From positions 1,136 to 65,135 of the forward strand of contig CAYJKL010000004.1 of the NCBI GenBank assembly GCA_964370755.1: DNA of 64,000 nt. The letters are read 5' to 3'. Source of the stretch: an uncultured Muribaculaceae bacterium (GTDB taxonomy: Bacteria > Bacillota_I > Bacilli_A > RF39 > UBA660). Below the pieces are notes generated by a model, which did no database searches, was not told the origin of the DNA, and saw only the letters and a list, made by a program, of their open reading frames with translations. A program made the position numbers and the translations under genes. Of the stretch, positions 118-19,105 are shown piece after piece (within the stretch, counting starts at the first letter, position 1; the number at the start of each line of letters is the position of its first letter).

Positions 118-405
118 TTATGGCGCGTCAGTTCCACCAGTACCACCAGTACCACCAGTACCTTCTGGACACGAAACATTTGTCTCATCAGTGTCAGTTG
201 CACCATTGCCATCTGCGTCATATGTACAAACTCTATCTGCACCTGTTCCCGTACAAGTACTTGCTATAGCACCATTACAGAACGTTGTTCTATTTAAACT
301 AGTTTGGATAGCTGGCCATACAAATGCGTAAAAAAATGCACCTACTGCTGCAATAGCTACTACTGTAACTACTGTCATATTTAATTCTCCTGTAGCTTCT
401 TTCAT
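118..405 (-). CDS. Candidate Flp/Tad-type major pilin (95 aa)
   Basis: Short charged leader MKEATG, then an acidic residue and about 22 hydrophobic residues. It lies immediately downstream of tadC-like and has RBS GGAGGA. The C-terminal part has 4 Cys and a GTGGTGGTGGT tail. Confidence 0.55.
   Translation of the reverse strand: MKEATGELNMTVVTVVAIAAVGAFFYAFVWPAIQTSLNRTTFCNGAIASTCTGTGADRVCTYDADGNGATDTDETNVSCPEGTGGTGGTGGTDAP
131..162. repeat. In-frame 9-bp tandem repeat (ccaccagta, about 3.5 copies) encoding the (GTG)n tail of the pilin
   Basis: Read directly: ccaccagta at 134-142, 143-151 and 152-160, with partial copies flanking. Confidence 0.9.
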
Positions 406-490: not shown

Positions 491-1279
491 CTAACCGTTC
501 ATCATTTGTAATACTGCTAATATTAGTAATATCATCACACCAAGTCCAGTCGCCATTAACATCTTCATTGTTTTTCCTTCCATCTTCTCAAGTCTGTTTT
601 TATACCTTGTATCTCTTGATTTTTGTTGTAAGCTTGATATTGACTTTGAAAATGTAAGCAGCTGTTCTTGTTTTCTTTCTTGTCTACCGAGTGATAGACG
701 GTAAAGTAAACGCATCATTCTCATAGAATCCCTTACTGGATACTTTTTAGCAAAGTTCATATATGGGTCAATTGAATCGTTTCCTGTATTAATTTCGATA
801 ATTAATTCCCTTAATCCTGGTCTAAATATTTCTGGCGCATCGTCTATTGATTTACCAAGAGCTACCGGTATTGTATAATGTTGTATTAATATCTCAATAC
901 TTTTTAAGTAATGAGGTAGCATTTGGTCAATATGAAACATGTTTCTTTTGTAAAAAGTTTTAAGCTGAGAATATGCTTGTTTAAAAATAAAGTAACCAGC
1001 TAGTAATGATATTACTATTGAAAGTGCTGAAAAATCATTTATAAAAAATAACATTGCGACTCCAGCCGCCATTAAACCATTTCTAATTCTTTGATTAAAT
1101 AATGTTGTAGAATTTACGTTATCGCCGTATCTTGCTCTTACATAAAATTCCCAATCTTCTTCTTTTAATCTTCTGAAAATTGCTTCGTTATCACTTACAA
1201 GTTGAGCAATACTTATTTGACCAGATACTGTCATTACAGTGAATATTATGGCTGCTATAATTACTATTTCAATTTGCAT
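491..1279 (-). CDS. tadC: TadC-like pilus assembly membrane protein (T2SSF-like)
   Basis: 262 aa with N- and C-terminal TM segments flanking a cytoplasmic helical domain. It is adjacent to and coupled with the tadB-like gene and the ATPase. Confidence 0.7.
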   Translation of the reverse strand: MQIEIVIIAAIIFTVMTVSGQISIAQLVSDNEAIFRRLKEEDWEFYVRARYGDNVNSTTLFNQRIRNGLMAAGVAMLFFINDFSALSIVISLLAGYFIFKQAYSQLKTFYKRNMFHIDQMLPHYLKSIEILIQHYTIPVALGKSIDDAPEIFRPGLRELIIEINTGNDSIDPYMNFAKKYPVRDSMRMMRLLYRLSLGRQERKQEQLLTFSKSISSLQQKSRDTRYKNRLEKMEGKTMKMLMATGLGVMILLILAVLQMMNG

Positions 1280-1281
1280 AA

Positions 1282-2187
1282 TTATTCGCCTCCTACATCT
1301 TCATTGTAGTATTTTTCCCCCGTTATTAAGAAATAACCGTTAACTAATAAAACAAAATGTAATATTATCTGAACATAAAAAGTCTCTATAAGTTCTAAGT
1401 AGTTATCTACACCAAACATATATTGAAGTGCAAGTACAAGTAAGAATAATATCATACCAAATCTAATAAATCTTCCGTGAAAATTCTTTCTATCTATTTG
1501 ATCTCGATAAACTCCCTCTACAAGTGCGTCTATATCCATTGACATATTTTCTAATGCTTGACCTGAATCCCTTGCTCCTTCTTTTGTAATTTGAAGAAAT
1601 AATTGATTCATGTTTTTCACCATATAAAACGGGTATTTTTCGTTGAAGTAAATTACTGATTCGTCAATTGTACCATTTTCATATGACATATCTATCATTC
1701 TTTTTACATCTGATAATACTGGATCTTCTAATATTCCTGAATCCCTAACTCCTTCGAGTGATTTTATGAAACTTTGAGTTGTATTAAACTCCATAATAAC
1801 GTTAGTAGTATAAATTTGTATTTGCTCAAATATAAATTCACTATATATTCTTTGACTTCTTAAATAAGATAGATAAGGAATAAAAGAAACAGCTAGCACA
1901 GCATAAACTATGCACAATATTAAACTATGAAAGTAAAAATATGATATTAATCCTGCACCACTTGCAAATATTATAACTTGCGTAGAATATTGTCTTGCCG
2001 AAAATTCTTGACCTAAAGCTTTAGTTTTTTCCCTTACTTCTTTATAAGAATATGGTGCGTATTTATCATACACTGTTGATACTCTATCTACTATAAAATT
2101 ATATATATTTTCACCAGGATTTAATCTGTAAAAAATCACAAATACAGTAATTACTAAGAGTATAACTAATTCTAAACTTGTTCCCAT
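1282..2187 (-). CDS. tadB: TadB-like pilus assembly membrane protein (T2SSF-like)
   Basis: 301 aa with the same TM-cytoplasmic domain-TM layout. It starts 12 nt after the ATPase stop. Confidence 0.7.
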   Translation of the reverse strand: MGTSLELVILLVITVFVIFYRLNPGENIYNFIVDRVSTVYDKYAPYSYKEVREKTKALGQEFSARQYSTQVIIFASGAGLISYFYFHSLILCIVYAVLAVSFIPYLSYLRSQRIYSEFIFEQIQIYTTNVIMEFNTTQSFIKSLEGVRDSGILEDPVLSDVKRMIDMSYENGTIDESVIYFNEKYPFYMVKNMNQLFLQITKEGARDSGQALENMSMDIDALVEGVYRDQIDRKNFHGRFIRFGMILFLLVLALQYMFGVDNYLELIETFYVQIILHFVLLVNGYFLITGEKYYNEDVGGE

Positions 2188-2198
2188 ATTATTCCTTT

Positions 2199-3317
2199 CT
2201 AAAGAGTTTCTAACTCTTCTAATTCATTTTGAATATTTTCTTTAGGTATTTTTGTATTAGTTGTTAAATTAAAAATATTATCTTTAAGTTTGACACCTTG
2301 TGCACCTAAATAGTCATGAAGTGCTTTTGATGGATTATTAAAATGATATTCTCCTCCGACACTTTTTTTGAATAATATATTTGCACATGCTTCATTTTCT
2401 TCTGATACATAAAATTCACATACTTCGATTATTTCACGCTGGAATCTTTCGTGCTCTGCACTATAATACCCTTTAACATGTATAGCAAGTTGTACATATC
2501 TGTGTATAGATTTTAAAAACTGATCAATATCTATATTATTTTCAAGCAAACTGTAAAGTCGCATTGGTACATTTCTAGCTCTATCTGAGTGGATTGTTGA
2601 TATGATATTGTGTCCCGATGATATTGAATTTCTTACGGCGGTAACCGCTTCTGCGGTTCTTACTTCTGAAAGTAAAATCCATCTTGGATTTTGTCTCATA
2701 CATGTAACTAGTACATCTGAATATGATGCAATATTATTTGTTTTCATCGCGACTATATCTCTATGCGGAAATATTTTATCAAGATGAAGTTCTAGTGTAT
2801 CTTCTATTGTAATTATTTTTTCGGTTTCACCAGTATGTGATGTTAAGTATTTAACAAGTTCTGTTTTACCTGAACCAGTTTCCCCACTTACTATTATGTT
2901 ACAGTGTCCTTTAACACATGTAATTAAAAAGTCATGAAGTTCTTCTGTAACATATTTTTCAGAAAGTAATTTGTCTTTATTTAATCTTATCTTTGCTGGA
3001 GTTTTACGTATAACACATGCTACTCCATTAGTTGCTATTGATTCATGCACAAAGTTAAGACGAAGCTCAGAACTTTCAGCATCTAAAAAGGGATGCGCCA
3101 TATTAAATGTCGTACCCATTACGTTTGAACACTGGAATGCAAGTTTTTCTAAAAGAGCGTTATTTATATCTGAACGCTCTATTCTATAAACTCCTTTATC
3201 TAGTGTCTTTAAATGTATTTGTCCATTATTTCCATATGAAACGTCTGTTACGTTTTCATCCTCTAAAAATTCTGTTAATGGTCCAAAATCTAATTGTGAA
3301 AATATTGCATCATTCAC
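2199..3317 (-). CDS. cpaF: CpaF/TadA-family type II/IV secretion ATPase
   Basis: Walker A GETGSGKT, followed by the ITIEDTLEL and RQNPRWILLSEVR blocks typical of T2SSE/VirB11-like ATPases. Confidence 0.9.
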   Translation of the reverse strand: MNDAIFSQLDFGPLTEFLEDENVTDVSYGNNGQIHLKTLDKGVYRIERSDINNALLEKLAFQCSNVMGTTFNMAHPFLDAESSELRLNFVHESIATNGVACVIRKTPAKIRLNKDKLLSEKYVTEELHDFLITCVKGHCNIIVSGETGSGKTELVKYLTSHTGETEKIITIEDTLELHLDKIFPHRDIVAMKTNNIASYSDVLVTCMRQNPRWILLSEVRTAEAVTAVRNSISSGHNIISTIHSDRARNVPMRLYSLLENNIDIDQFLKSIHRYVQLAIHVKGYYSAEHERFQREIIEVCEFYVSEENEACANILFKKSVGGEYHFNNPSKALHDYLGAQGVKLKDNIFNLTTNTKIPKENIQNELEELETL

Positions 3318-3339
3318 AAAATCACTCCCTTTTTATTTT

Positions 3340-4131
3340 TTAATCTGATACTGTATTTGTTTTGATTTCAATGTATGTTTTTATTGTTTGACTTGTTACC
3401 GTTGTTTCACCTTCAGAATCTGTATAGTTACTGTTACGTGGAACTGGTATTATTTCCAGTCCGCTTATAAAACTTGCTTGAGTCAGTAGGTTAAATAAAT
3501 TTTTATCATCATCTGAAGGATCGTCCGGTACTGCGAATAACAGTAGTGCTGATTGTCCTGTTTCAGTATTTTCAAATACATCTTCTTGTGATGAATCCCT
3601 AACTGCTAACACTTCTATTTTTTCGATAAACTTACCAAAATTTATTTCTCCTAAGTCATCTGTATATTTGATATATAAATCTATTCTATCTCCTGGATAA
3701 ATTGAGTTACCATAAGTTGAATTATTATTTACCGGTAAAGAAAATAGTGTATAACCTTCTGGTATATCATCAAATACTGCATTAGGTAATTTACTTTTTT
3801 CAACCACCTGAGTTTGATAAAAGAACCCTGACTTAGGTATTGATGTTCCTGTTGTTATGTATTTTCCTACTAATTCATTTACATTTGTCATGATTGGAAT
3901 TGTGGATAACATTCTTTGATTTATTTCTACGTAACCAATGTTATCTTGAATTATTTCCTCTGTTGCACTAATTGCTTCAAGTGCATAAGGAACTGTTGTT
4001 GGCGCAATAGCATCATTAACCCTCATATTATAAAAGAACCATAGTACTATTACTCCAGCAATTACTCCAAGGATTGTAACTGTATTTTTATTAGATATAA
4101 ATCTTTTAAATCCGCCTAGTATATTCCCCAT
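3340..4131 (-). CDS. CpaB/RcpC-like pilus assembly protein (N-terminal TM, SAF-like domain)
   Basis: N-terminal TM segment. The pattern EGYTLFSLPV...IYPGDRIDLYI resembles the CpaB family, and the gene sits directly upstream of the ATPase. Confidence 0.6.
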   Translation of the reverse strand: MGNILGGFKRFISNKNTVTILGVIAGVIVLWFFYNMRVNDAIAPTTVPYALEAISATEEIIQDNIGYVEINQRMLSTIPIMTNVNELVGKYITTGTSIPKSGFFYQTQVVEKSKLPNAVFDDIPEGYTLFSLPVNNNSTYGNSIYPGDRIDLYIKYTDDLGEINFGKFIEKIEVLAVRDSSQEDVFENTETGQSALLLFAVPDDPSDDDKNLFNLLTQASFISGLEIIPVPRNSNYTDSEGETTVTSQTIKTYIEIKTNTVSD

Positions 4132-4149
4132 ATTATTTCATTCCTTTCA

Positions 4150-4560
4150 TTATTCTATTGCTTCTCCTTCAAGTATTGCATCTACAGTATCGACAATATC
4201 AAATGTTTCAGTATCACCTGCTACATTAAATGAACTAGATTTACTTGAGACTTTAACACTGATTTTTGGCGGAGCTTCATATATTTGATAAAATTCAATA
4301 TCATATGTTGTTCCTCCATCGCTAGATTCTGCCATTCTTCTTAAAAAAGTTTCAATAAATTTTTCTTTATTTATTCTTAATTCTCCATATTCTCTATAAT
4401 AAGCATAATCTACAGAATCTACCATTGCAGCTTCCGAAATTTCCCTTACCATTGTATTAGTAATAGTATTACTGTTAGTTAGATTTTGAACTAACAGCAT
4501 TACTACCACAACAAATACTCCTAAAATTATTAACCAATATCCCCAATAAGCATTACTCAT
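4150..4560 (-). CDS. Membrane-anchored hypothetical protein (136 aa) in the Tad operon
   Basis: One N-terminal TM helix and an acidic C-terminus. It starts 13 nt after the 1149-aa gene stop. No family recognised. Confidence 0.5.
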   Translation of the reverse strand: MSNAYWGYWLIILGVFVVVVMLLVQNLTNSNTITNTMVREISEAAMVDSVDYAYYREYGELRINKEKFIETFLRRMAESSDGGTTYDIEFYQIYEAPPKISVKVSSKSSSFNVAGDTETFDIVDTVDAILEGEAIE

Positions 4561-4572
4561 TTATAAAACCTC

Positions 4573-7500
4573 CTATTTCCATGCTGGTCCACCTATAGTA
4601 GACTCTGTTATCTGATTGGGAATTCCCGTTACAAAAAGTTCCCAATAACTACTCGGATCATCTCTATTTATTTGATTGTCATCAGCATCTTTTCCATACT
4701 GGAATTTATCTTTGTGCTCGTCGCTTGTAATCCATTCGCCTAGCGGTTCACTATAGCATAGTAGGTTTTTATAAGTAATTCCATCTACTTTTGCGTTTTG
4801 ACAGTCAAGAGAATTATTTGAGTAACCACCACCTTGATCTTCAACTGTATCAGAACTATTGTAGTTCTTTATTGTATTTACGAGCGCTGGGTCGAGTGTT
4901 ACTGTTAAAAACGGCGTTTCAGCATATATTGCATTGCCTTCAGCTAGTATTCCAGTACTATTTTCATCAATTATCAGATTTCCTGAATTATCAACTCCTG
5001 TAATACCTAGTGTTTTTTGTGCTTTAAGCGAAACAAATCCGTACTTGGTATCTGTTGTATAATTGTAATTCCAGTTATACCCAAGTGGTCTATTATTTGG
5101 ATTAAATGCATCTGGTGAGTATGTTCTATAAACTAAGTTGACTGTTACATCGAATTTACAAGTTGGACAGTAAGGATCTGGTGTATCAAAGTTTCCTTCG
5201 ATATTAATATCACATTCTGGACAATTTATTGGAGCATAACATACATATTCTCCTGTAAATGTGTCTTCTTTTTCCATTACATCATCTACTGATTGATCCG
5301 ATTTATCGTCACCTTTATCCACTAATCTTCCAGTTTCATCACATTCTTCGCTGTAATATTCTCCTAGATTATCAATATTAATTTTATATGTGTATGCACC
5401 ATTTACTGTAGGTCTCATTTCTGTAGGCAAACCGTCTACTACTATCGATTCATCTGTTGCTTCATAAACTATATTTCCATTAGGTACTAGTTGATAATAA
5501 TTTCTTTCGGTTTGATATTTTTCATTATCTGACATAGTCCATTTAATATAATTAGATGTACCTATTGTTATATATTCTTCTGGAAGAGAACATCCTGAAG
5601 TACTACAACTTAGGTATTTGACTTGTTTTGATTGAGCAGTGTAATTTGTAACTAAATTTCCACTACATGTATTATATTCATTACTTCCCAAAGCTCCATC
5701 ACAGTACCATTTTTCTACTGTTGTGGGAGTATTTGTTGTTGATACCATTTCATCTTCAACTTTACTTAAATCATAATATTCTGAATCATATGTATAAGTT
5801 AGTGTTGGATTAAGTTCATAATTAACTGTCCACGTTGAACAAGCTCTGTAATCGCTTATTAATGCGTTAAGTTGATTTTGAAGACTTGTTATTTTTATTG
5901 CTGCGGCTGATGCTGTTGTTTCATAATCGGCTGCCACACTAGTTTGTGTAGTATTTGAACTACAACCCCCTGCAGAAGCTGGATATACTTCACTACTTGA
6001 AGTTGATATTGTAGCCTCCCCATATTCACCAAATGTTATTGAATAGTGTGTATATGTTCCTGAAGAACTATACTTTGTCTTTGATGAAGGTATAGGAAAT
6101 AAACTGCATATCTCCACAGTACCTGCATCATTTTTTAATGAAGTTGCTGTATTGATATTTTTATTATATATATTCATTTGATTAATTAATTCTGTTTGAA
6201 TTGTTTTAATATCACTAACATATTGATCTATTTTAATTTCGCTTGTGTAACATGTTTTTACTCCATATACACTTGCATCTATATTAAAATACCTAGCATT
6301 ATTTACATTTTTTACTGCAGGGAATTTTAAACTATAATCTTCTTTACAGTATACTGCGCAGTAATTATTATTTACTACGGAACCGCCTGATTCAGTTTTT
6401 ATTATACCTGTTTCGCAAGTGTTTTTATATGAATTGCCACCATCATCTAATTTATCAGACCAGGTAGTATCACTTACATTGTCACCTGTTACTGTTGTGG
6501 TTGGAGTCCCTGTAATACATCCTACTATATCAAATGGGTCTTTTACATCAAAATCACCAGTAGAATTTTGATCTATCCATTCATTATCTTCATCTATATC
6601 TGATGGATTTATACAGTAGTTTGGTACTGTTATTTCATTCTTACACATATCTGGACATATTTCAACTTGAGTTGATAAACTTCCATCTATTAAATCTGTA
6701 CCTGTATCTGATCCTTCGTCTAGAAATACTGCAAATGTCTGAACTGCTCCAGTACCAGATAAATACAGAACTTCTGAAGGACTTACATTACCGTTATAAG
6801 AATAATTTATTGTAAAATGAGCGGGTGGACATTCACCATCTGGTATGTTATATACTAATTTGAAATTAATTTCTTTTATAGTATCAAGCGATATGTGTTT
6901 AAGTGCTTCTTCTGCTGCCGCAGTGCTAGTGTATGTTACTTTTGATTCGTCTTTTTTTACAATATCTATATTCATTGTTACTATATTATGTACTTGTGTT
7001 GTGATATAAAGTTTTTGTATATAATTATCACTTTCAAAGTTTGTTGGATTTAAACTTGCTTGAACAACAGATTGTTTTAGTGTTTCATCCACTACATTTG
7101 GTCCTAGTTCATTAACAAATGATGGTGCAGCCGTTACTGAACTACCGTCTTTTTCTTGTTCAATTAAACGAGCTTCTTCTAAAGCAGCATTGATGCCTTT
7201 ACTTATTAATAATTGAATAATAAATGTAAAATAGTTATTTTGATATAAATCATATTTATATCCACCACTTTCCCAAATAGGTGACCCAGATTCATTTAAT
7301 AAAGCACTATGAAAGGTTTTACCAGGGTTATACCAACTTCTTGTTGAGTTAAAATCTTCTTTCATAATATTTACTAAATTTGATAAATCATCAATTGGTT
7401 TATCTGTCATGAATTGTGTTAAATATTTAACATCTTCTTTTTGTTCTGCTGTTGTACTAGGATCATTTGCTATAAACGCCAAATATCCTAGTGCGAAGTC

Positions 7501-8022
7501 TACGTGGGCAGAAGCTGTTGTGCTCCATGTTGAATAACTAGAATCATTAAATATACCAATATAATAGGCTCTTATAGCAACTGATGTAACAAGATATAAT
7601 TCATCATCAGTTAAGGAATAGTTTTTGCCATAAAATTCGAAGTTTTGACTTTCCCCTTGCTTGCTGCCTCCTAAACCGTATTTTAAGATTTCCGCTACTC
7701 CAGCATCCCTAATTCTAGTTTCTTCAAAAGTAACTCCAAAATCATGCTGTTTTAAGTTGTAACCTGACGCGGCTGCTCCAGGATCCAAACAATATGCTGG
7801 TTGATCCAACCATGTACCTATGCTTATTTGATATCTATTTGTTCCATATCCTGACCCAATAGACGTTGCGCTACCGGTGTCTCCAATATTTATTAGTTGA
7901 GTTGTCTTATTACCATAACTTTTCCAAACAGGAGTTTCGTTTATTTCAATGGCATTAACATCATGACTTATAAGTAAAATTGTTAACAATAAAAATAAAT
8001 TATATATTTTAATTTTTTTCAT
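4573..8022 (-). CDS. Large secreted Cys-rich protein (1149 aa), function unknown; candidate pilus-associated adhesin
   Basis: Signal peptide ending HDVNA/IE. Many Cys, including CPECD...CPTCK. No LPXTG motif and no C-terminal TM. The start overlaps the upstream gene by 14 nt. Confidence 0.75.
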   Translation of the reverse strand: MKKIKIYNLFLLLTILLISHDVNAIEINETPVWKSYGNKTTQLINIGDTGSATSIGSGYGTNRYQISIGTWLDQPAYCLDPGAAASGYNLKQHDFGVTFEETRIRDAGVAEILKYGLGGSKQGESQNFEFYGKNYSLTDDELYLVTSVAIRAYYIGIFNDSSYSTWSTTASAHVDFALGYLAFIANDPSTTAEQKEDVKYLTQFMTDKPIDDLSNLVNIMKEDFNSTRSWYNPGKTFHSALLNESGSPIWESGGYKYDLYQNNYFTFIIQLLISKGINAALEEARLIEQEKDGSSVTAAPSFVNELGPNVVDETLKQSVVQASLNPTNFESDNYIQKLYITTQVHNIVTMNIDIVKKDESKVTYTSTAAAEEALKHISLDTIKEINFKLVYNIPDGECPPAHFTINYSYNGNVSPSEVLYLSGTGAVQTFAVFLDEGSDTGTDLIDGSLSTQVEICPDMCKNEITVPNYCINPSDIDEDNEWIDQNSTGDFDVKDPFDIVGCITGTPTTTVTGDNVSDTTWSDKLDDGGNSYKNTCETGIIKTESGGSVVNNNYCAVYCKEDYSLKFPAVKNVNNARYFNIDASVYGVKTCYTSEIKIDQYVSDIKTIQTELINQMNIYNKNINTATSLKNDAGTVEICSLFPIPSSKTKYSSSGTYTHYSITFGEYGEATISTSSSEVYPASAGGCSSNTTQTSVAADYETTASAAAIKITSLQNQLNALISDYRACSTWTVNYELNPTLTYTYDSEYYDLSKVEDEMVSTTNTPTTVEKWYCDGALGSNEYNTCSGNLVTNYTAQSKQVKYLSCSTSGCSLPEEYITIGTSNYIKWTMSDNEKYQTERNYYQLVPNGNIVYEATDESIVVDGLPTEMRPTVNGAYTYKINIDNLGEYYSEECDETGRLVDKGDDKSDQSVDDVMEKEDTFTGEYVCYAPINCPECDINIEGNFDTPDPYCPTCKFDVTVNLVYRTYSPDAFNPNNRPLGYNWNYNYTTDTKYGFVSLKAQKTLGITGVDNSGNLIIDENSTGILAEGNAIYAETPFLTVTLDPALVNTIKNYNSSDTVEDQGGGYSNNSLDCQNAKVDGITYKNLLCYSEPLGEWITSDEHKDKFQYGKDADDNQINRDDPSSYWELFVTGIPNQITESTIGGPAWK

Positions 8023-8743
8023 TTGATTTCTCTCCTATTTTTTTTCTGAATATAATTAAAGAACCTAATAATAATACTACAACAATTATTATTACAATTA
8101 GTAATACGTTATTACTATCATGACTTTCTTCGGTTTCTTCAGCGTCATCTTCTGTCTCAAATTTTTCTTCTTTTAGATCATCTAATTTTTGATAAAAAGA
8201 ATCAGCGGATAAGTTTTCGTTAGTAGTAAATTCTTGACATATTGGTTCATCTTTAAAATCCAAACATTCATCTCTACCACTATACATGTTATATTTTGGC
8301 GTTGTTAAATAAAAAATTTTATTATTCTCGTTAGGGCAGCCTGTTATATCTGAAGTTTTAACTGTAAAAGTATATGTTATTACTTCATTATCATTGTAAC
8401 CTTCCATTGCATATGTTCCTTCAACAAAATCTGTATATAATATAGTTTTTACCTCTGTATTATAATCATTAGTTACTTCTATAGTAAAATTATCTGTCAT
8501 ATTTAATACATTAATACTAATATATGGAACAAATAATTTATAGTCTTCAGCTTCCTCTTCTGTTAAATCTTCTGGTGGTTCGTACATACTAGGATCCAAT
8601 TCTAATTGTAGTATTTCATAATCCACCTTTATTAAATTTGCCTCTGTTTTTAACTCCGATTGCTCCTCTACTGAGCATGCAGAATTTGCATTTACTATTA
8701 GTGGCATTGTTAATAGTAAAAAAGTATATAGTATTTTTTTCAT
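8009..8743 (-). CDS. Secreted acidic protein with a C-terminal TM anchor (244 aa); first gene of the Tad-like operon
   Basis: Signal peptide (LIVNA/NS), an acidic ectodomain, a C-terminal hydrophobic helix and a basic tail (FRKKIGEK). Confidence 0.65.
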   Translation of the reverse strand: MKKILYTFLLLTMPLIVNANSACSVEEQSELKTEANLIKVDYEILQLELDPSMYEPPEDLTEEEAEDYKLFVPYISINVLNMTDNFTIEVTNDYNTEVKTILYTDFVEGTYAMEGYNDNEVITYTFTVKTSDITGCPNENNKIFYLTTPKYNMYSGRDECLDFKDEPICQEFTTNENLSADSFYQKLDDLKEEKFETEDDAEETEESHDSNNVLLIVIIIVVVLLLGSLIIFRKKIGEKSNEKN

Positions 8744-14431: not shown

Positions 14432-16516
14432 TTATCCTCTTTTTAATCCTTTAAAATCTTTTAGTACTTTTTTATTTCCAAATCTTGCAGAAAAAGCTAT
14501 TGTTACAAATCTATCATCTACACTTGTTACTGTTCCTCTTCCAAAAGTTACATGAAATAATGTTTCTCCAACACTGTACTCTTCTTTGTTTCCATAATAT
14601 ACAGTAGTATCTACTACTTTGTCAATTATTTTTCTTTTTTCTTCTTTTCTTTCTAACAATGAATCATTTATTTCATCAATAAATCTTGATGGCATATTAG
14701 CACTCATTTTACCATATAACATTCTGCGCTCTGCATTTGTTATATAAAGTTTTTCTTTTGCTCTTGTGATTGCTACATAACAAAGTCTTCTTTCTTCTTC
14801 AAGTGCTTCTCTATCAAATAATGAATTTTGATGAGGAAGTATTCCCTCTTCACTACCTATTATAAACACTATCTTAAACTCTAAACCTTTAGATCCATGT
14901 ATTGTCATAAGCGTTACTACATCATCATAATCTTTATGGTCTGTAATGTCTGCTACTAATGAAATATCTTCTAAAAAGTCTTCTAAGTTTACTGACCCAG
15001 TTTCTTTTTGATAATTTTCAGTTATACTTTTAAACTCAAGTAAGTTTTCTATTCTAAGATCTGCTTCAAGCGCTTTTTCACTTTCAAGTTCTTTTAATAT
15101 CCCACTTTTATCAAGTACACAGTCAATAAGCTCAGTGAGTGATAAATTTTCTTTTTCTTTGATAATATCTAATATTATATCTTTAAATACTAACTGTTTT
15201 TTATCTTCTATTGATGCAAACATACTATTATTTTCTAGAGTTGCTTTATCTCTAAGTGTCGCTACTGCTTTTTCTCCAATTCCTCTTTTCGGTACATTTA
15301 TTATTCTTTCAAGTGAAATATCATCACTATTATTTGATATAAGTTTTAAATATGCAAGTAAATCTTTAATTTCTTTACGCTTATAAAAGAAAAAACTTCC
15401 TACTACTTTATATGGTATATTTGCTTTCATCATTGCTTCTTCTATACCTCGTGATTGTGCATTAGTTCTGTAAAATATCGCAATATCTTTTCTGTTATAT
15501 CCACTTGAAACTAAATTTTTAATTTCTTCTGTTACATAACTTACTTCACTATGATCGTTAAACGCTCTATTATATTTTATTTTAAAACCGTCACCAAGTT
15601 CTGAGAATAAATCAACATCTTTTTTATCTTTATTATTTTTTATAACATCATTTGCGGCTTTTAATATTGTTGTTGTACTTCTATAATTTTGATTAAGTGT
15701 TATTACTTTACAATCTTTGAAATCTTTTTCAAAATTTAAAATATTTTTATAATTTGACCATCTAAATGCGTATATACTTTGATTTACATCTCCTACTACA
15801 AATATATTTCCATGCTTTTTAGAAAGTAATCTAACTAATTTATACTGCACTTCATTTGTATCTTGATATTCATCTATTAAGATATATTTAAATCTTTCTT
15901 GGTATGCCTCTAATACATCTGGATTACTCATTAAAAGTTCTACTGGTTTTCTAAGCAAATCATCAAAATCTATTGCGTTATTTTTCTTAAGTATATCTTC
16001 ATATTTATAATAAATTTCTGCTGCTTTTTTATCTATGTAAGATGTAAAGTATTTTTCAACTCCTGCACTTGTTAACATTTCATTTTTTATAAAACTAATT
16101 TTATTTTTTACATATGAAGGACTAATCTCTTTTGGGTCATAACCTAAATCTTTAATTATTTTTTTTATTACATTCGCTGCATCATCTGAATCTATTATAC
16201 TAAAGTTTCTAAGTAGATTCATTTTTTCAAAATTTTCTCTTATAACTTTAACACCAAATGAATGAAATGTTCCAACAAATGCATAATTATCAGGTACTAG
16301 ATGACCTAATCTTTCTCTCATCTCTTTAGCTGCTTTATTTGTAAATGTGATTGCTAAAATATTTCCAGAGTGTTCTCCACTATCAATTAGATTTGCAATT
16401 CTTGTTGTTAATACTTTAGTCTTTCCAGAACCTGCTCCTGCTATAACTAAGCAAGGCCCTTCCTTATGTGTTGCTGCCAATTTTTGATTTTCGTTTAATC
16501 CATCTATATAACTCAT
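14432..16516 (-). CDS. pcrA: ATP-dependent DNA helicase PcrA (UvrD family)
   Basis: Walker A GAGSGKT, DEYQDT, and the helicase motifs VGDVNQSIYAFR and TIHGSKGLEF. Confidence 0.95.
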   Translation of the reverse strand: MSYIDGLNENQKLAATHKEGPCLVIAGAGSGKTKVLTTRIANLIDSGEHSGNILAITFTNKAAKEMRERLGHLVPDNYAFVGTFHSFGVKVIRENFEKMNLLRNFSIIDSDDAANVIKKIIKDLGYDPKEISPSYVKNKISFIKNEMLTSAGVEKYFTSYIDKKAAEIYYKYEDILKKNNAIDFDDLLRKPVELLMSNPDVLEAYQERFKYILIDEYQDTNEVQYKLVRLLSKKHGNIFVVGDVNQSIYAFRWSNYKNILNFEKDFKDCKVITLNQNYRSTTTILKAANDVIKNNKDKKDVDLFSELGDGFKIKYNRAFNDHSEVSYVTEEIKNLVSSGYNRKDIAIFYRTNAQSRGIEEAMMKANIPYKVVGSFFFYKRKEIKDLLAYLKLISNNSDDISLERIINVPKRGIGEKAVATLRDKATLENNSMFASIEDKKQLVFKDIILDIIKEKENLSLTELIDCVLDKSGILKELESEKALEADLRIENLLEFKSITENYQKETGSVNLEDFLEDISLVADITDHKDYDDVVTLMTIHGSKGLEFKIVFIIGSEEGILPHQNSLFDREALEEERRLCYVAITRAKEKLYITNAERRMLYGKMSANMPSRFIDEINDSLLERKEEKRKIIDKVVDTTVYYGNKEEYSVGETLFHVTFGRGTVTSVDDRFVTIAFSARFGNKKVLKDFKGLKRG

Positions 16517-16549
16517 ATTATACCCACCATTCGTATAACTATTATACCA

Positions 16550-16577
16550 AAATAAAAAGGTCTTTTAAACCTTTTTT
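16550..16577 (-). terminator. Rho-independent terminator after the vWA-pilin gene
   Basis: AAAAGGT / ACCTTTT stem with a 7-nt loop, followed by a T-rich run on the minus strand. Confidence 0.55.
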
Positions 16578-16579
16578 GA

Positions 16580-18586
16580 TTAGTTATTGTAATAATATAT
16601 TATTTGAACATCTGAAAAATTTCCATCTAATTTGAGGTAACTATCTATTTTTGTCAAATCTATGCTATCTTTAGTATCGTTTAAAAACTTAATTATGTCA
16701 TTATATTCTGTTGTCTCAAAATATATTTCTTCAGTCTTTGGATTTATAATTGTAAATGGTTTATCAATATCTACTACTATTCCAGGTGTGCTTATTAGTC
16801 CGTTTACTGAGTATGTTGGAATTATTTCTGCTATATCTTCTGTAATATCCTTTAACACTTCTGTTAATTCTTCTGAACCAACACTTGATTCATAATATAG
16901 TTTTTCCCCCTCATCATTTTCGCTTGCAAAATTTTTTAAAAAAGATGAGTTTACAGAATCACCAAGTCCAATAGTATATAATTTATTTATATATTCACTT
17001 TTTAAAGTATCAGCTTCTGTAGTACCATCATTTGAAGATCCATCACTTAAGAATATTACAAAAGAGTTTTCTTTATTAAATTCTTCTGGAGCTCCTTTTA
17101 TTACATTTATTGCTTCTGACAACCCACTAGAAAAACTTGTTCCTCCTGATGCATTCATGTCATTTACTATATCGATTACATCATTTTTATCTTCTAAATA
17201 TTCTCCTGCGGTATGAGCTGAAGAGGAGAATATAACTACAGAAAATATAGTTCCTGGTACATAATCCGTATTATCCATCAATACTTTTACTGCATTTTGT
17301 AAAGCATCTAGACCTCTTCCAGCCATACTTCCTGAATCATCTAGCACAAATACAATATGGGATTTTCCAACAGTATTCATATTGTCTTCGTTATATTTAA
17401 TTAAATTTATACTACGGTCATTAAAATTATATTTTGCAGTAAGCGTTATATTTTCAGTTATGTCTTTTGAACTTACGTCTTTTGAACTTGTAATTTTGTT
17501 TCCTAATTCATCATACCATCCATCAAATGTATATCCGTTTTTTTGTGGTATTGAAAGTGGTATATTTGGATCATTTTTATCAAATAATTTTGTTTCATCT
17601 TCAAATTGAGGATTGTCATAAATTATAGTTATTTTTCCTATATCCATTTCGCTTTTATATTTGTTTCCAACATTATCTATTGCGCATAAATACTGAATTC
17701 CTGTAGTGGTTACACTTATGCTTGATGGTAGTGTATCATTTTCATTAAATGTACAGTCTTCATCTCCTAATTTATAACTTTTAAGTCCTGAACCTACATC
17801 AGATACTTTTATTTCTAGTTCTTGAGTTTCGTCAGTGCTTATTTTTTTTGATGTTACTATAGGAGCTGCTTTATCCACTCTAATTCTAGAATCTGTTACA
17901 AACTGATAATCTTTTTCTTCGTGTGTATATTCTAAAGTTACATAAAAATATGCGTCTAATACATCCGTAGGCATTTCAAAAGTTATTTTTTTTCCATTTT
18001 CTAAACTTTCTGTATTCATGTAATATCCATGGTCACTATACCAAGTTAGTTTTACGTTTGTCGCGGTATTTAAATGCTCATTTATCTCTGTTCGATTTAT
18101 TTCTAAATTAAGTTCATTTAATGTTCCGAGCCAATTTTCACATTCTTTTCCATCACATTTTATTTTTATATCATCTTCTTTTGCTTCAAAATATTCGCAT
18201 GAAAAATCCAAATCTTTACTTTCAATTTCGTCTTCATTTTCTAAAGTTACTATGTACTCTCCGTCTTTATATTCTATTTTATACATTAAACAATTTAATT
18301 TTTTTGAATTATCTCTTGGGTCATATATAAAACCATCTGAGTCATCAGCTATAATGTAACCGCCTTTAATTAGTTCATCAATTGTTACGTATGTTATTTT
18401 AGATGTAGCATTTTCAAAAGCAAAAGTTTTAGCTTTACTTTCAATATTCGTAAGTATATTTGTTAGCTGGTTATCTTCTATATCTCTTTTTATGCTAAGA
18501 AATGAACTCGCTGCTATACTAACTATAATAGCAAGCACAATTATTACCGCTAGTAGTTCTGTTAGTGTAAATCCTTTATTATTCAT
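16580..18586 (-). CDS. Modular type IV pilin-like protein with a C-terminal von Willebrand factor A domain
   Basis: Class III prepilin signal MNNKG/FTLTELLAVIIVLAII. It also has a GYTFDGWYDELGN repeat (Listeria-Bacteroides type) and the vWA MIDAS motif VLDDSGSM. Confidence 0.8.
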   Translation of the reverse strand: MNNKGFTLTELLAVIIVLAIIVSIAASSFLSIKRDIEDNQLTNILTNIESKAKTFAFENATSKITYVTIDELIKGGYIIADDSDGFIYDPRDNSKKLNCLMYKIEYKDGEYIVTLENEDEIESKDLDFSCEYFEAKEDDIKIKCDGKECENWLGTLNELNLEINRTEINEHLNTATNVKLTWYSDHGYYMNTESLENGKKITFEMPTDVLDAYFYVTLEYTHEEKDYQFVTDSRIRVDKAAPIVTSKKISTDETQELEIKVSDVGSGLKSYKLGDEDCTFNENDTLPSSISVTTTGIQYLCAIDNVGNKYKSEMDIGKITIIYDNPQFEDETKLFDKNDPNIPLSIPQKNGYTFDGWYDELGNKITSSKDVSSKDITENITLTAKYNFNDRSINLIKYNEDNMNTVGKSHIVFVLDDSGSMAGRGLDALQNAVKVLMDNTDYVPGTIFSVVIFSSSAHTAGEYLEDKNDVIDIVNDMNASGGTSFSSGLSEAINVIKGAPEEFNKENSFVIFLSDGSSNDGTTEADTLKSEYINKLYTIGLGDSVNSSFLKNFASENDEGEKLYYESSVGSEELTEVLKDITEDIAEIIPTYSVNGLISTPGIVVDIDKPFTIINPKTEEIYFETTEYNDIIKFLNDTKDSIDLTKIDSYLKLDGNFSDVQIIYYYNN

Positions 18587-18641
18587 ATTTTTATTCCTTT
18601 ATTATATATAAATAATACCTTATTTTTGACTTTTTTTCAAT

Positions 18642-18665
18642 AAAAAAATTAGTTTTCACTAATTT
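18642..18665 (-). terminator. Rho-independent terminator after the CotY/Z-like gene
   Basis: AAATTAGT-GAAA-ACTAATT T stem-loop (8 bp, GAAA tetraloop), followed by a T run on the minus strand. Confidence 0.6.
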
Positions 18666-18667
18666 TT

Positions 18668-19105
18668 CTAACAAACGCATTCAACGTATGTATCTGTTAA
18701 ACACCTTAAAGAACATAAACAGTCTGTATTCATAGTGAAGAAAGATGTTGTTGCTACATAAGGATTTAAGCTAGTTGTATCTGGATTTGGAATAAGCACT
18801 CTAAATGTTGCACAGTTACAATCTATTTTTTCTACTCTAAATACTGATGAGCAGTCAGAAGTTATTCCTTGTCCTCCGCAGTCTGTAGTTGTATCCTTAG
18901 AAACAGGCATTGACCATGGTGTTCCATTGCCACAGCATGTATATAACATTACCGGTCTAGTATTACATACTAAACAGTTTGGACCTCCACCTAGTAGTGG
19001 TCTATCACAAGTGTCCATACAGTTTTCTGGACAAGCATTTTCTTGAAGCACTAAGATTACATTTAAGATATCTGTAATACAGCTTGAATTTTTTGTATCG
19101 TTCAT
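18668..19105 (-). CDS. CotY/CotZ/ExsY-family Cys-rich spore coat or crust protein
   Basis: About 20 Cys in 145 aa. The ITDIL..IL.LQE...C...NTRPVMLYT pattern is typical of the CotZ/CotY family. Confidence 0.65.
   Translation of the reverse strand: MNDTKNSSCITDILNVILVLQENACPENCMDTCDRPLLGGGPNCLVCNTRPVMLYTCCGNGTPWSMPVSKDTTTDCGGQGITSDCSSVFRVEKIDCNCATFRVLIPNPDTTSLNPYVATTSFFTMNTDCLCSLRCLTDTYVECVC

Follow-up and report, generated by a model that had tools for sequence, protein, structure and literature searches.

A pilin with a grafted von Willebrand factor A domain, a probable tip adhesin of an uncultured small-genome bacterium

A 668 amino acid (aa) intact open-reading frame, which starts with ATG and lies on the minus strand at 16580..18586 of a 64,000-nucleotide window (the whole stretch of DNA analysed, from contig CAYJKL010000004.1 of an uncultured bacterium that GTDB places in RF39), encodes what is probably a modular minor type IV pilin, that is, a metal-dependent adhesin located at the pilus tip and assembled by a PilB, PilC and PilD set whose genes are scattered through the genome. 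An initial annotation made from the window alone had proposed a minor or tip pilin with an adhesive role, dependent on machinery encoded at other loci, and this is supported by the wider analysis, with an A24 prepilin peptidase, a PilC platform (contig C5) and a PilB-type ATPase (C7) all present in the same genome (1.21 Mb in 67 contigs, numbered here with the letter C, 27% G+C, 93% completeness). The lineage is uncultured, with genomes of 0.5–1.4 Mb, and the gene is a concrete candidate for gut attachment through a pilus-borne, metal-dependent adhesin.

We infer cleavage, filament incorporation, tip position, adhesion and ligand as follows. The prepilin would insert into the membrane, where the single A24 peptidase of the genome would remove a five-residue leader after Gly5, and the mature protein would enter the filament via its N-terminal small-pilin module. 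The filament itself would be built from the small pilins of the genome by the PilB-type ATPase and the PilC platform on other contigs. The bulk past the pilin module (~550 residues) would fit best at the pilus tip, where the metal ion-dependent adhesion site (MIDAS) of the von Willebrand factor type A (vWA) domain could bind its ligand, be it a protein of the host or of the diet, or another cell.

An AlphaFold2 (AF2) model of the full protein, built on 19 aligned relatives (mean predicted local distance difference test, pLDDT, of 80), a separate AF2 model of residues 1–330 and profile matches delimit the following parts:

18572..18586, minus strand: leader peptide MNNKG, residues 1–5, a class III signal with predicted cleavage after Gly5
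18227..18571, minus strand: pilin module, residues 6–120, with a hydrophobic alpha1N and Glu at +5 (AF2 and profile matches)
17867..18181, minus strand: first beta-sandwich stalk domain, residues ~136–240 (AF2 strands 140–238, Foldseek, conserved columns)
17612..17866, minus strand: second stalk domain, immunoglobulin (Ig)-like, residues ~241–325 (AF2 at ~243–323, conserved columns)
17390..17596, minus strand: single Listeria-Bacteroides unit (Flg_new / InlB B-repeat type), residues ~331–399, GYTFDGWYDELGN (Pfam, TIGR02543, AF2)
16832..17365, minus strand: vWA domain, residues ~408–585 (Pfam, Foldseek, MIDAS residues)
16583..16828, minus strand: C-terminal beta domain, residues 587–668, ending YYY (AF2 at 587–666, pLDDT ~85–92)

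The N-terminus reads MNNKG/FTLTELLAVIIVLAIIVSIAASSF, the slash marking the predicted cleavage point, thus starting MNNKG/FTLTE with Glu at +5. Upstream of the ATG a stop codon is reached after only 4 codons, so the leader is MNNKG. The class III signal reported in the initial annotation scored above the cut-offs of both relevant models, N_methyl PF07963 (24.8 bits, cut-off 21.2) and TIGR02532 (27.5, cut-off 16.3). The AF2 pilin module consists of a 51-residue alpha1 helix (residues 8–58) and a small beta-sheet head (65–115), with pLDDT of ~66–87, and holds a conserved Cys99 whose conserved partner, Cys130, lies in the linker directly after it.

Residues 1–120 align end to end with three complete small pilins of the same genome, those on C10 (~120 aa), C1 (123 aa) and C45 (152 aa), with which they have the motif LI..GY...DD...NP in common, and over its first 36 residues the protein has 64% identity to a small pilin on C20. 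The latter (C20:6147-6551) starts VNNKG/FTLTELLAVIIILAVV, making its N-terminus nearly identical to that of the large pilin, and is encoded between ruvA-like and ruvB-like genes. Compared with sequences in the PDB, a profile of the head region matched type IV pilins of solved structure that form filaments, with E 4.6e-10 for Geopilin and, over 93 positions, 1.1e-9 for PilE1, the major pilin of S. sanguinis; MshA, PilA and GspG were among the further matches. Competence pilins were considered as the identity of the protein and rejected, as scores against the NCBIfam equivalog cut-offs were 25.3/75 for ComGC, 22/70 for ComGD, 17.6/49 for ComGE and 12.4/80 for ComGF in the series ComGC–ComGG; the ComGC–ComGF matches cover the N-terminal helix only.

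Beyond the pilin module, the Cys-containing Ig-like segments that had been described together with the pilin-like head were recovered as beta-sandwiches in the AF2 models. The protein has six Cys in all (99, 130, 144, 149, 278 and 301). In the first stalk domain a CDGKEC pair (Cys144/149) is accompanied by conserved Trp152 and Trp182, and the second carries a conserved D263-x-GSG motif and Cys278/Cys301, and occupies the position of Pfam DUF7743 in some relatives (7 of 69 matched; equivalent place in relative P0176). Foldseek searches with the 1–330 model returned tandem adhesin stalks of Ig and fibronectin type III (FnIII) domains, such as those of ScpA / C5a peptidase (Fn3), SiiE and intimin. 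The Flg_new unit that follows was matched by PF09479 at residues 335–385 (E 1.6e-8) and by TIGR02543 (4.1e-7), with AF2 strands at 331–399; the initial annotation had spoken of a repeat followed by a vWA domain with DDSGSM, of which the vWA holds and the repeat proves to be one unit and not an array. The C-terminal beta domain gave no Pfam match, its conserved columns are P601, P610, F611, D648 and Y664–666, and its conservation is limited to the vWA-bearing orthologues.

The Pfam VWA model covers residues 411–568 (E 6.7e-19), and the AF2 model shows an alpha/beta domain at residues 410–585. A structural check with MIDAS completeness had been recommended for this domain, and the modelled structure confirmed the vWA fold of residues ~408–585: a Foldseek search against the PDB gave 336 matches at E<1e-3, and the best 50 of the 336 were all vWA-containing proteins, with mussel PTMP1, complement factor B, the LapA vWFA and ANTXR2 among the matches listed (TM-score up to 0.82, for the ANTXR2 vWA). 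By sequence, the best vWA matches in the PDB were PTMP1, collagen VI, ITIH and LapA. The MIDAS is complete, comprising D416, S418 and S420 (DDSGS at 416), T483 (GGTSF at 481) and D515 (LSDGS at 513). Ten orthologue representatives, sharing an overall identity of just 27–34%, all have D416 and S418, and conservation reaches at least 90% at S420, T483 and D515; such conservation in divergent orthologues points to selection on the metal site.

No PilB, PilC or PilD is encoded in the window, just as the initial annotation had stated, and the sole T2SSE ATPase there (2199–3317) is of the Tad type. A search of the whole genome for PilD, PilB and PilC, the absence of which had been named beforehand as refuting the reading, found all three, together with candidate partner pilins:

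C5:34483-35289: A24 prepilin peptidase (PF01478 at C5:34615-34935, 46 bits)
C5:35249-36826: PilC/GspF platform (two PF00482, T2SSF, domains at C5:35282-36268)
C7:4947-6278: PilB/GspE-type ATPase (PF00437, T2SSE, at C7:4968-6149, 400 bits)
C15:19837-22047: three adjacent minor-pilin-like genes

The peptidase is the single copy found in the genome and its gene overlaps the end of the platform gene. The best NCBIfam matches of the ATPase and the platform were GspE/PilB and GspF/PilC, all under the equivalog cut-offs, and the N-terminal domains that the PilB/GspE models include are missing from the ATPase. The genome has seven further prepilin-type genes, among them the four small pilins on C1, C10, C20 and C45, which have the same G/FT..E leader. 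A 364-aa minor-pilin-like product (C15:20423-21517) and a 331-aa protein encoded next to the region downstream of pilB (C7:11833-12828) share a '...F.G.YWRI...' block. The vWA pilin gene had been called an orphan, and it does stand alone, yet it is not special in this respect, since the pilin genes of the genome are all scattered among housekeeping genes and the position is therefore the local norm.

The peptidase extends well beyond this one genome. In a sample of 81 genera of the same bacterial family (genomes of 0.5–1.5 Mb), the A24 peptidase was present in 81 of 81, nearly always as one copy and including genomes of 0.5–0.8 Mb, and pilin-head matches occurred in 71 of 81. Two genomes of the sample (G056 and G067) had 22–26 pilin-head matches each, many of them in open frames of 400–1377 aa.

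Relatives of the whole protein came to light in a HMMER search run exhaustively against 1.84 billion representatives; a second word-indexed search, made with an orthologue alignment, had yielded almost nothing more. The same full architecture was found in ~9 clusters (645–736 aa, 30–36% identical), and a full-length relative in only one other species-representative genome, an uncultured Bacilli metagenome-assembled genome from the Hadza gut (32% identity), where the neighbouring genes are unlike those here and no pilus machinery gene is evident adjoining it. The carrier part occurs more widely: among the 148 best representatives at least 83 clusters are prepilins, and many of these have the first ~310 residues in common but differ beyond them. 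A few are short small pilins or share only the pilin head. A Pfam scan of 69 prepilin relatives found N_methyl in 67, vWA in 9, DUF7743 in 7, Flg_new in 6 and thrombospondin type 1 (TSP1) in 4, with single cases of Big_13, fn3 and a chitinase N-terminal domain. There is thus a conserved carrier of ~310 aa, made of the pilin and the two Ig-like domains, in dozens of clusters from uncultured gut Bacilli and with differing C-terminal modules; in the family sample the full 295-position carrier was found in only 5 of the 81 genomes. We found no description of this carrier family in the literature searched.

Large pilins on this carrier also occur as tandem paralogues, at the relatives' loci L008 (3997–12406; 665, 987 and 801 aa) and L012 (10001–14846; 755 and 643 aa), in which the first 300 residues are near-identical and the C-termini differ, being Cys-rich or repeat sequences. 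Single-pass membrane proteins of 189–285 aa are encoded after or between these large pilins. In two other genomes, a conserved single-pass membrane protein of 263–279 aa is encoded directly 3' of vWA-pilin orthologues, at L016:7943-8734 and L010:2301-3140. One metagenomic relative (P0143, 1202 aa) is a prepilin starting MKKKG/F..., with N_methyl, nine Flg_new repeats, a pretoxin-HINT domain at 968–1097 (E 5e-17) and a tail of ~105 residues, and may represent polymorphic-toxin-type cargo on a type IV pilin.

A broader interpretation, which we put forward tentatively and regard as possible rather than probable, is that the 310-residue front end marks out a family of tip pilins, cassette-like and hitherto undescribed, that is confined to uncultured gut Bacilli with small genomes. 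There, one minimal, universally retained PilB/PilC/PilD set, possibly the competence machine, would display interchangeable heads (vWA, thrombospondin-like Cys-rich ends, Ig-like arrays). If this were true, bacteria with these reduced genomes would have in the pilus their principal means of attachment, and one that diversifies rapidly.

Several observations weigh against a tip adhesin on a long pilus. The Foldseek search with the 330-residue N-terminal model returned Ig/FnIII stalks only, with no pilin among the best 50, as the two Ig-like domains outweigh the rest of the model. The support for the pilin fold of the front end therefore comes from sequence profiles and from the secondary structure predicted for it. 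In the genome, a search for PilM gave a sub-threshold match only, no second, PilT-like ATPase was found (the sole other T2SSE ATPase being the Tad one in the window), and ComEC is present; given this minimal machinery, the filament may be a short competence-type pilus, used for display as well, and not a long adhesive one. The host organism is uncultured, and a tblastn search of its genome for the 263–279-aa membrane protein that follows the vWA-pilin orthologues gave nothing better than E 0.75.

Much of this would suit an alternative which we consider unlikely, in which the protein is a surface adhesin held by its membrane alpha1N, or caps a very short wall-spanning pseudopilus, and the Ig-like stalk pushes the vWA domain through the peptidoglycan without any long pilus. 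The machinery is minimal and resembles Com or type II secretion systems, as judged by the lack of a PilM over the cut-off and of a PilT, the ATPase without N-terminal domains and the presence of ComEC, and a stalk of ~290 residues of its own would be less needed at the tip of a long fibre. However, at least four small pilins of the major type, with a matching alpha1N, are retained in the genome, and CofB and TcpB are large stalked tip pilins which are nevertheless borne on long pili (PMC8179133).

The same competence-like features bear on the function of the head. It seems distinctly improbable to us that the vWA head is non-adhesive and serves pilus priming, mechanosensing or functions related to DNA uptake by a competence pilus, along the lines suggested for the PilY1 vWA. 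ComEC and a type IV pilus set that is Com-like in composition would agree with such a role, and the PilY1 vWA is linked to surface sensing (PMC9210963, PMC8806160). Against this, the closest vWA sequences and folds are of extracellular matrix or adhesin types (PTMP1, collagen VI, ITIH, the LapA vWFA and ANTXR2), sister proteins on the same carrier bear binding modules (TSP1, Flg_new arrays and Ig-like domains), and the ComGC–ComGG model scores are far under their cut-offs. We retain a tip-located adhesin as the probable identity of the protein.

The window contains other filament genes, in a Tad-like locus at 491–8743 with a TadA-type ATPase, an RcpC/CpaB-like gene and a DUF5411 gene. The locus ends 7.8 kb from the vWA pilin gene, in agreement with the ~8 kb given in the initial annotation, which had also correctly noted a different pilin leader and had suggested that the Tad machine might co-opt the protein. 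That suggestion found poor support. TadG/CpaL-type minor pilins of Tad systems carry vWA domains, and a large minor pilin of this kind, belonging to the Tad-like pilus nearby, would depend for its processing on the single A24 peptidase found in the genome, which would then have to serve both systems, and for its assembly on the Tad ATPase. We regard this as very improbable. The TadE/Tad families PF07811 and PF13400 had no match in the protein even at E<=1. The Tad pilin (118–405, minus strand) starts MKEATG/ELNMTVVTVVAIAAV (MKEATG/ELNMTVV) and is unrelated to the N-terminus of the vWA pilin, FTLTELLAVIIVLAII, which the small non-Tad pilins match closely. The two loci have at least seven unrelated genes between them, and the relatives at L008, L012 and L016 are found among housekeeping genes, with no Tad or other T2SSE-type ATPase gene evident adjoining them.

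The vWA pilin gene, taken to be adhesive and assembled by the PilB/PilC/PilD set, is flanked by the following signals:

18641..18670, minus strand: hairpin AAAAAUUAGU-GAAA-ACUAAUUUUU with a U tract, 3' of the upstream cotZ-like gene
18612..18640, minus strand: promoter-like TTGAAA-17-TATTAT (-35 at 18635–18640, -10 at 18612–18617), 10 of 12 consensus matches
18594..18599, minus strand: ribosome-binding site AAGGAA, 7 nucleotides (nt) 5' of the ATG, read from the sequence
16549..16577, minus strand: A+T-rich hairpin with a U tract, beginning 3 nt past the TAA stop

The terminator hairpins that had been reported on both sides of the gene do exist and fold better than shuffled sequences. The upstream one has a folding energy of -11.8 kcal/mol (z -2.5; centroid -10.6 kcal/mol) and the downstream one of -12.4 kcal/mol (z -3.6), with 0 of 200 shuffles equally stable. 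A G+C-based terminator scan found no terminator at either, as A+T-rich hairpins are missed by it. Judging by folding energy, the downstream hairpin is likely to be the intrinsic terminator of the pilin gene and the upstream one a terminator that insulates it from the cotZ-like gene, and the pilin gene is likely transcribed as a monocistronic unit. The promoter attributed to the gene is present as TTGAAA-17-TATTAT, but it carries little weight, as promoter-like sites are no more frequent in this A+T-rich stretch than in shuffles (16 vs. 14.1 +/- 3.4), and its assignment as the promoter of the gene is only suggestive. A TTTAAA-17-TATAAT site with an extended TG (16541–16569, minus strand) overlaps the downstream hairpin and is promoter-like for the UvrD/PcrA-type helicase gene at 14432–16516. 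An origin of the pilin gene by horizontal transfer or from a mobile element was rejected, as its G+C (0.27–0.30) is the same as in the neighbouring genes and repeats flanking it were not found.

The upstream neighbour (18668–19105, minus strand) encodes a spore coat protein of the CotZ type, rich in Cys (Pfam, 2.6e-11). The genome also has a Spo0A match (C1:87056-87364, 135 bits), and SpoIVA adjoins the large pilins at the relatives' locus L012. On these gene matches, this very small (1.2-Mb) genome seems to have retained an endospore programme.

Among known systems, the TadG/CpaL proteins of Tad (type IVc) pili are alike in being large and pilin-like with a vWA domain, and a Tad-like locus is present in the window, yet here the N-terminus is of the N_methyl (G/FTLxE) type, the gene lies outside the Tad operon and the alpha1N matches non-Tad pilins. 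CofB of the CFA/III pilus of enterotoxigenic Escherichia coli and TcpB of the V. cholerae toxin-coregulated pilus (TCP) also place a beta-domain stalk with a distal binding function after a pilin module. They differ in being type IVb pilins of diderm bacteria, without a vWA and encoded in pilus operons, and no sequence similarity to them was detected here. Both are large stalked tip pilins of long pili, thought to start or cap the filament (PMC8179133).

The nearest parallel is the class of modular pilins described in 2021, which numbers over 1,200 proteins combining IPR012902 with an additional domain, in 264 architectures, with vWA (IPR002035) among the effector domains (PMC8179133). A characterised member, PilB of S. 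sanguinis, carries a vWA module on a small pilin; it has been modelled at the tip, has Mg/Mn bound at the MIDAS and binds fibrinogen and fibronectin (PMC8179133). PilB and the protein described here are alike in their class III signal, short leader, Glu5, N-terminal small-pilin module and C-terminal vWA with a complete MIDAS; both belong to monoderm hosts and both are expected at the tip as adhesins. PilB, however, has 461 aa, its vWA being joined to the pilin by a short loop, and unlike this bimodular protein ours has ~290 stalk residues (two Ig-like domains and one Flg_new unit, ~136–399) before the vWA and an 80-residue C-terminal domain after it. The S. sanguinis pilB gene lies in a pil locus of a system with PilT, whereas the genes here are scattered and PilT was not found. 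No PilB chain was among the PDB sequence matches, whether with the protein as query (E<=0.01) or among the best 60 of 64 matches of the orthologue profile (E<=0.1), and orthology to PilB was therefore rejected in favour of an analogous architecture only. The vWA on this pilin looks like a graft made independently of S. sanguinis PilB. As in the modular class generally, a pilin carrier bears a grafted effector module, but here the carrier is often found in tandem paralogue arrays. Conceptually the protein adds an example to a known pilin class and no new principle; in it, the pilin-plus-module design of S. sanguinis appears to recur independently, on a conserved stalked carrier with exchangeable heads.

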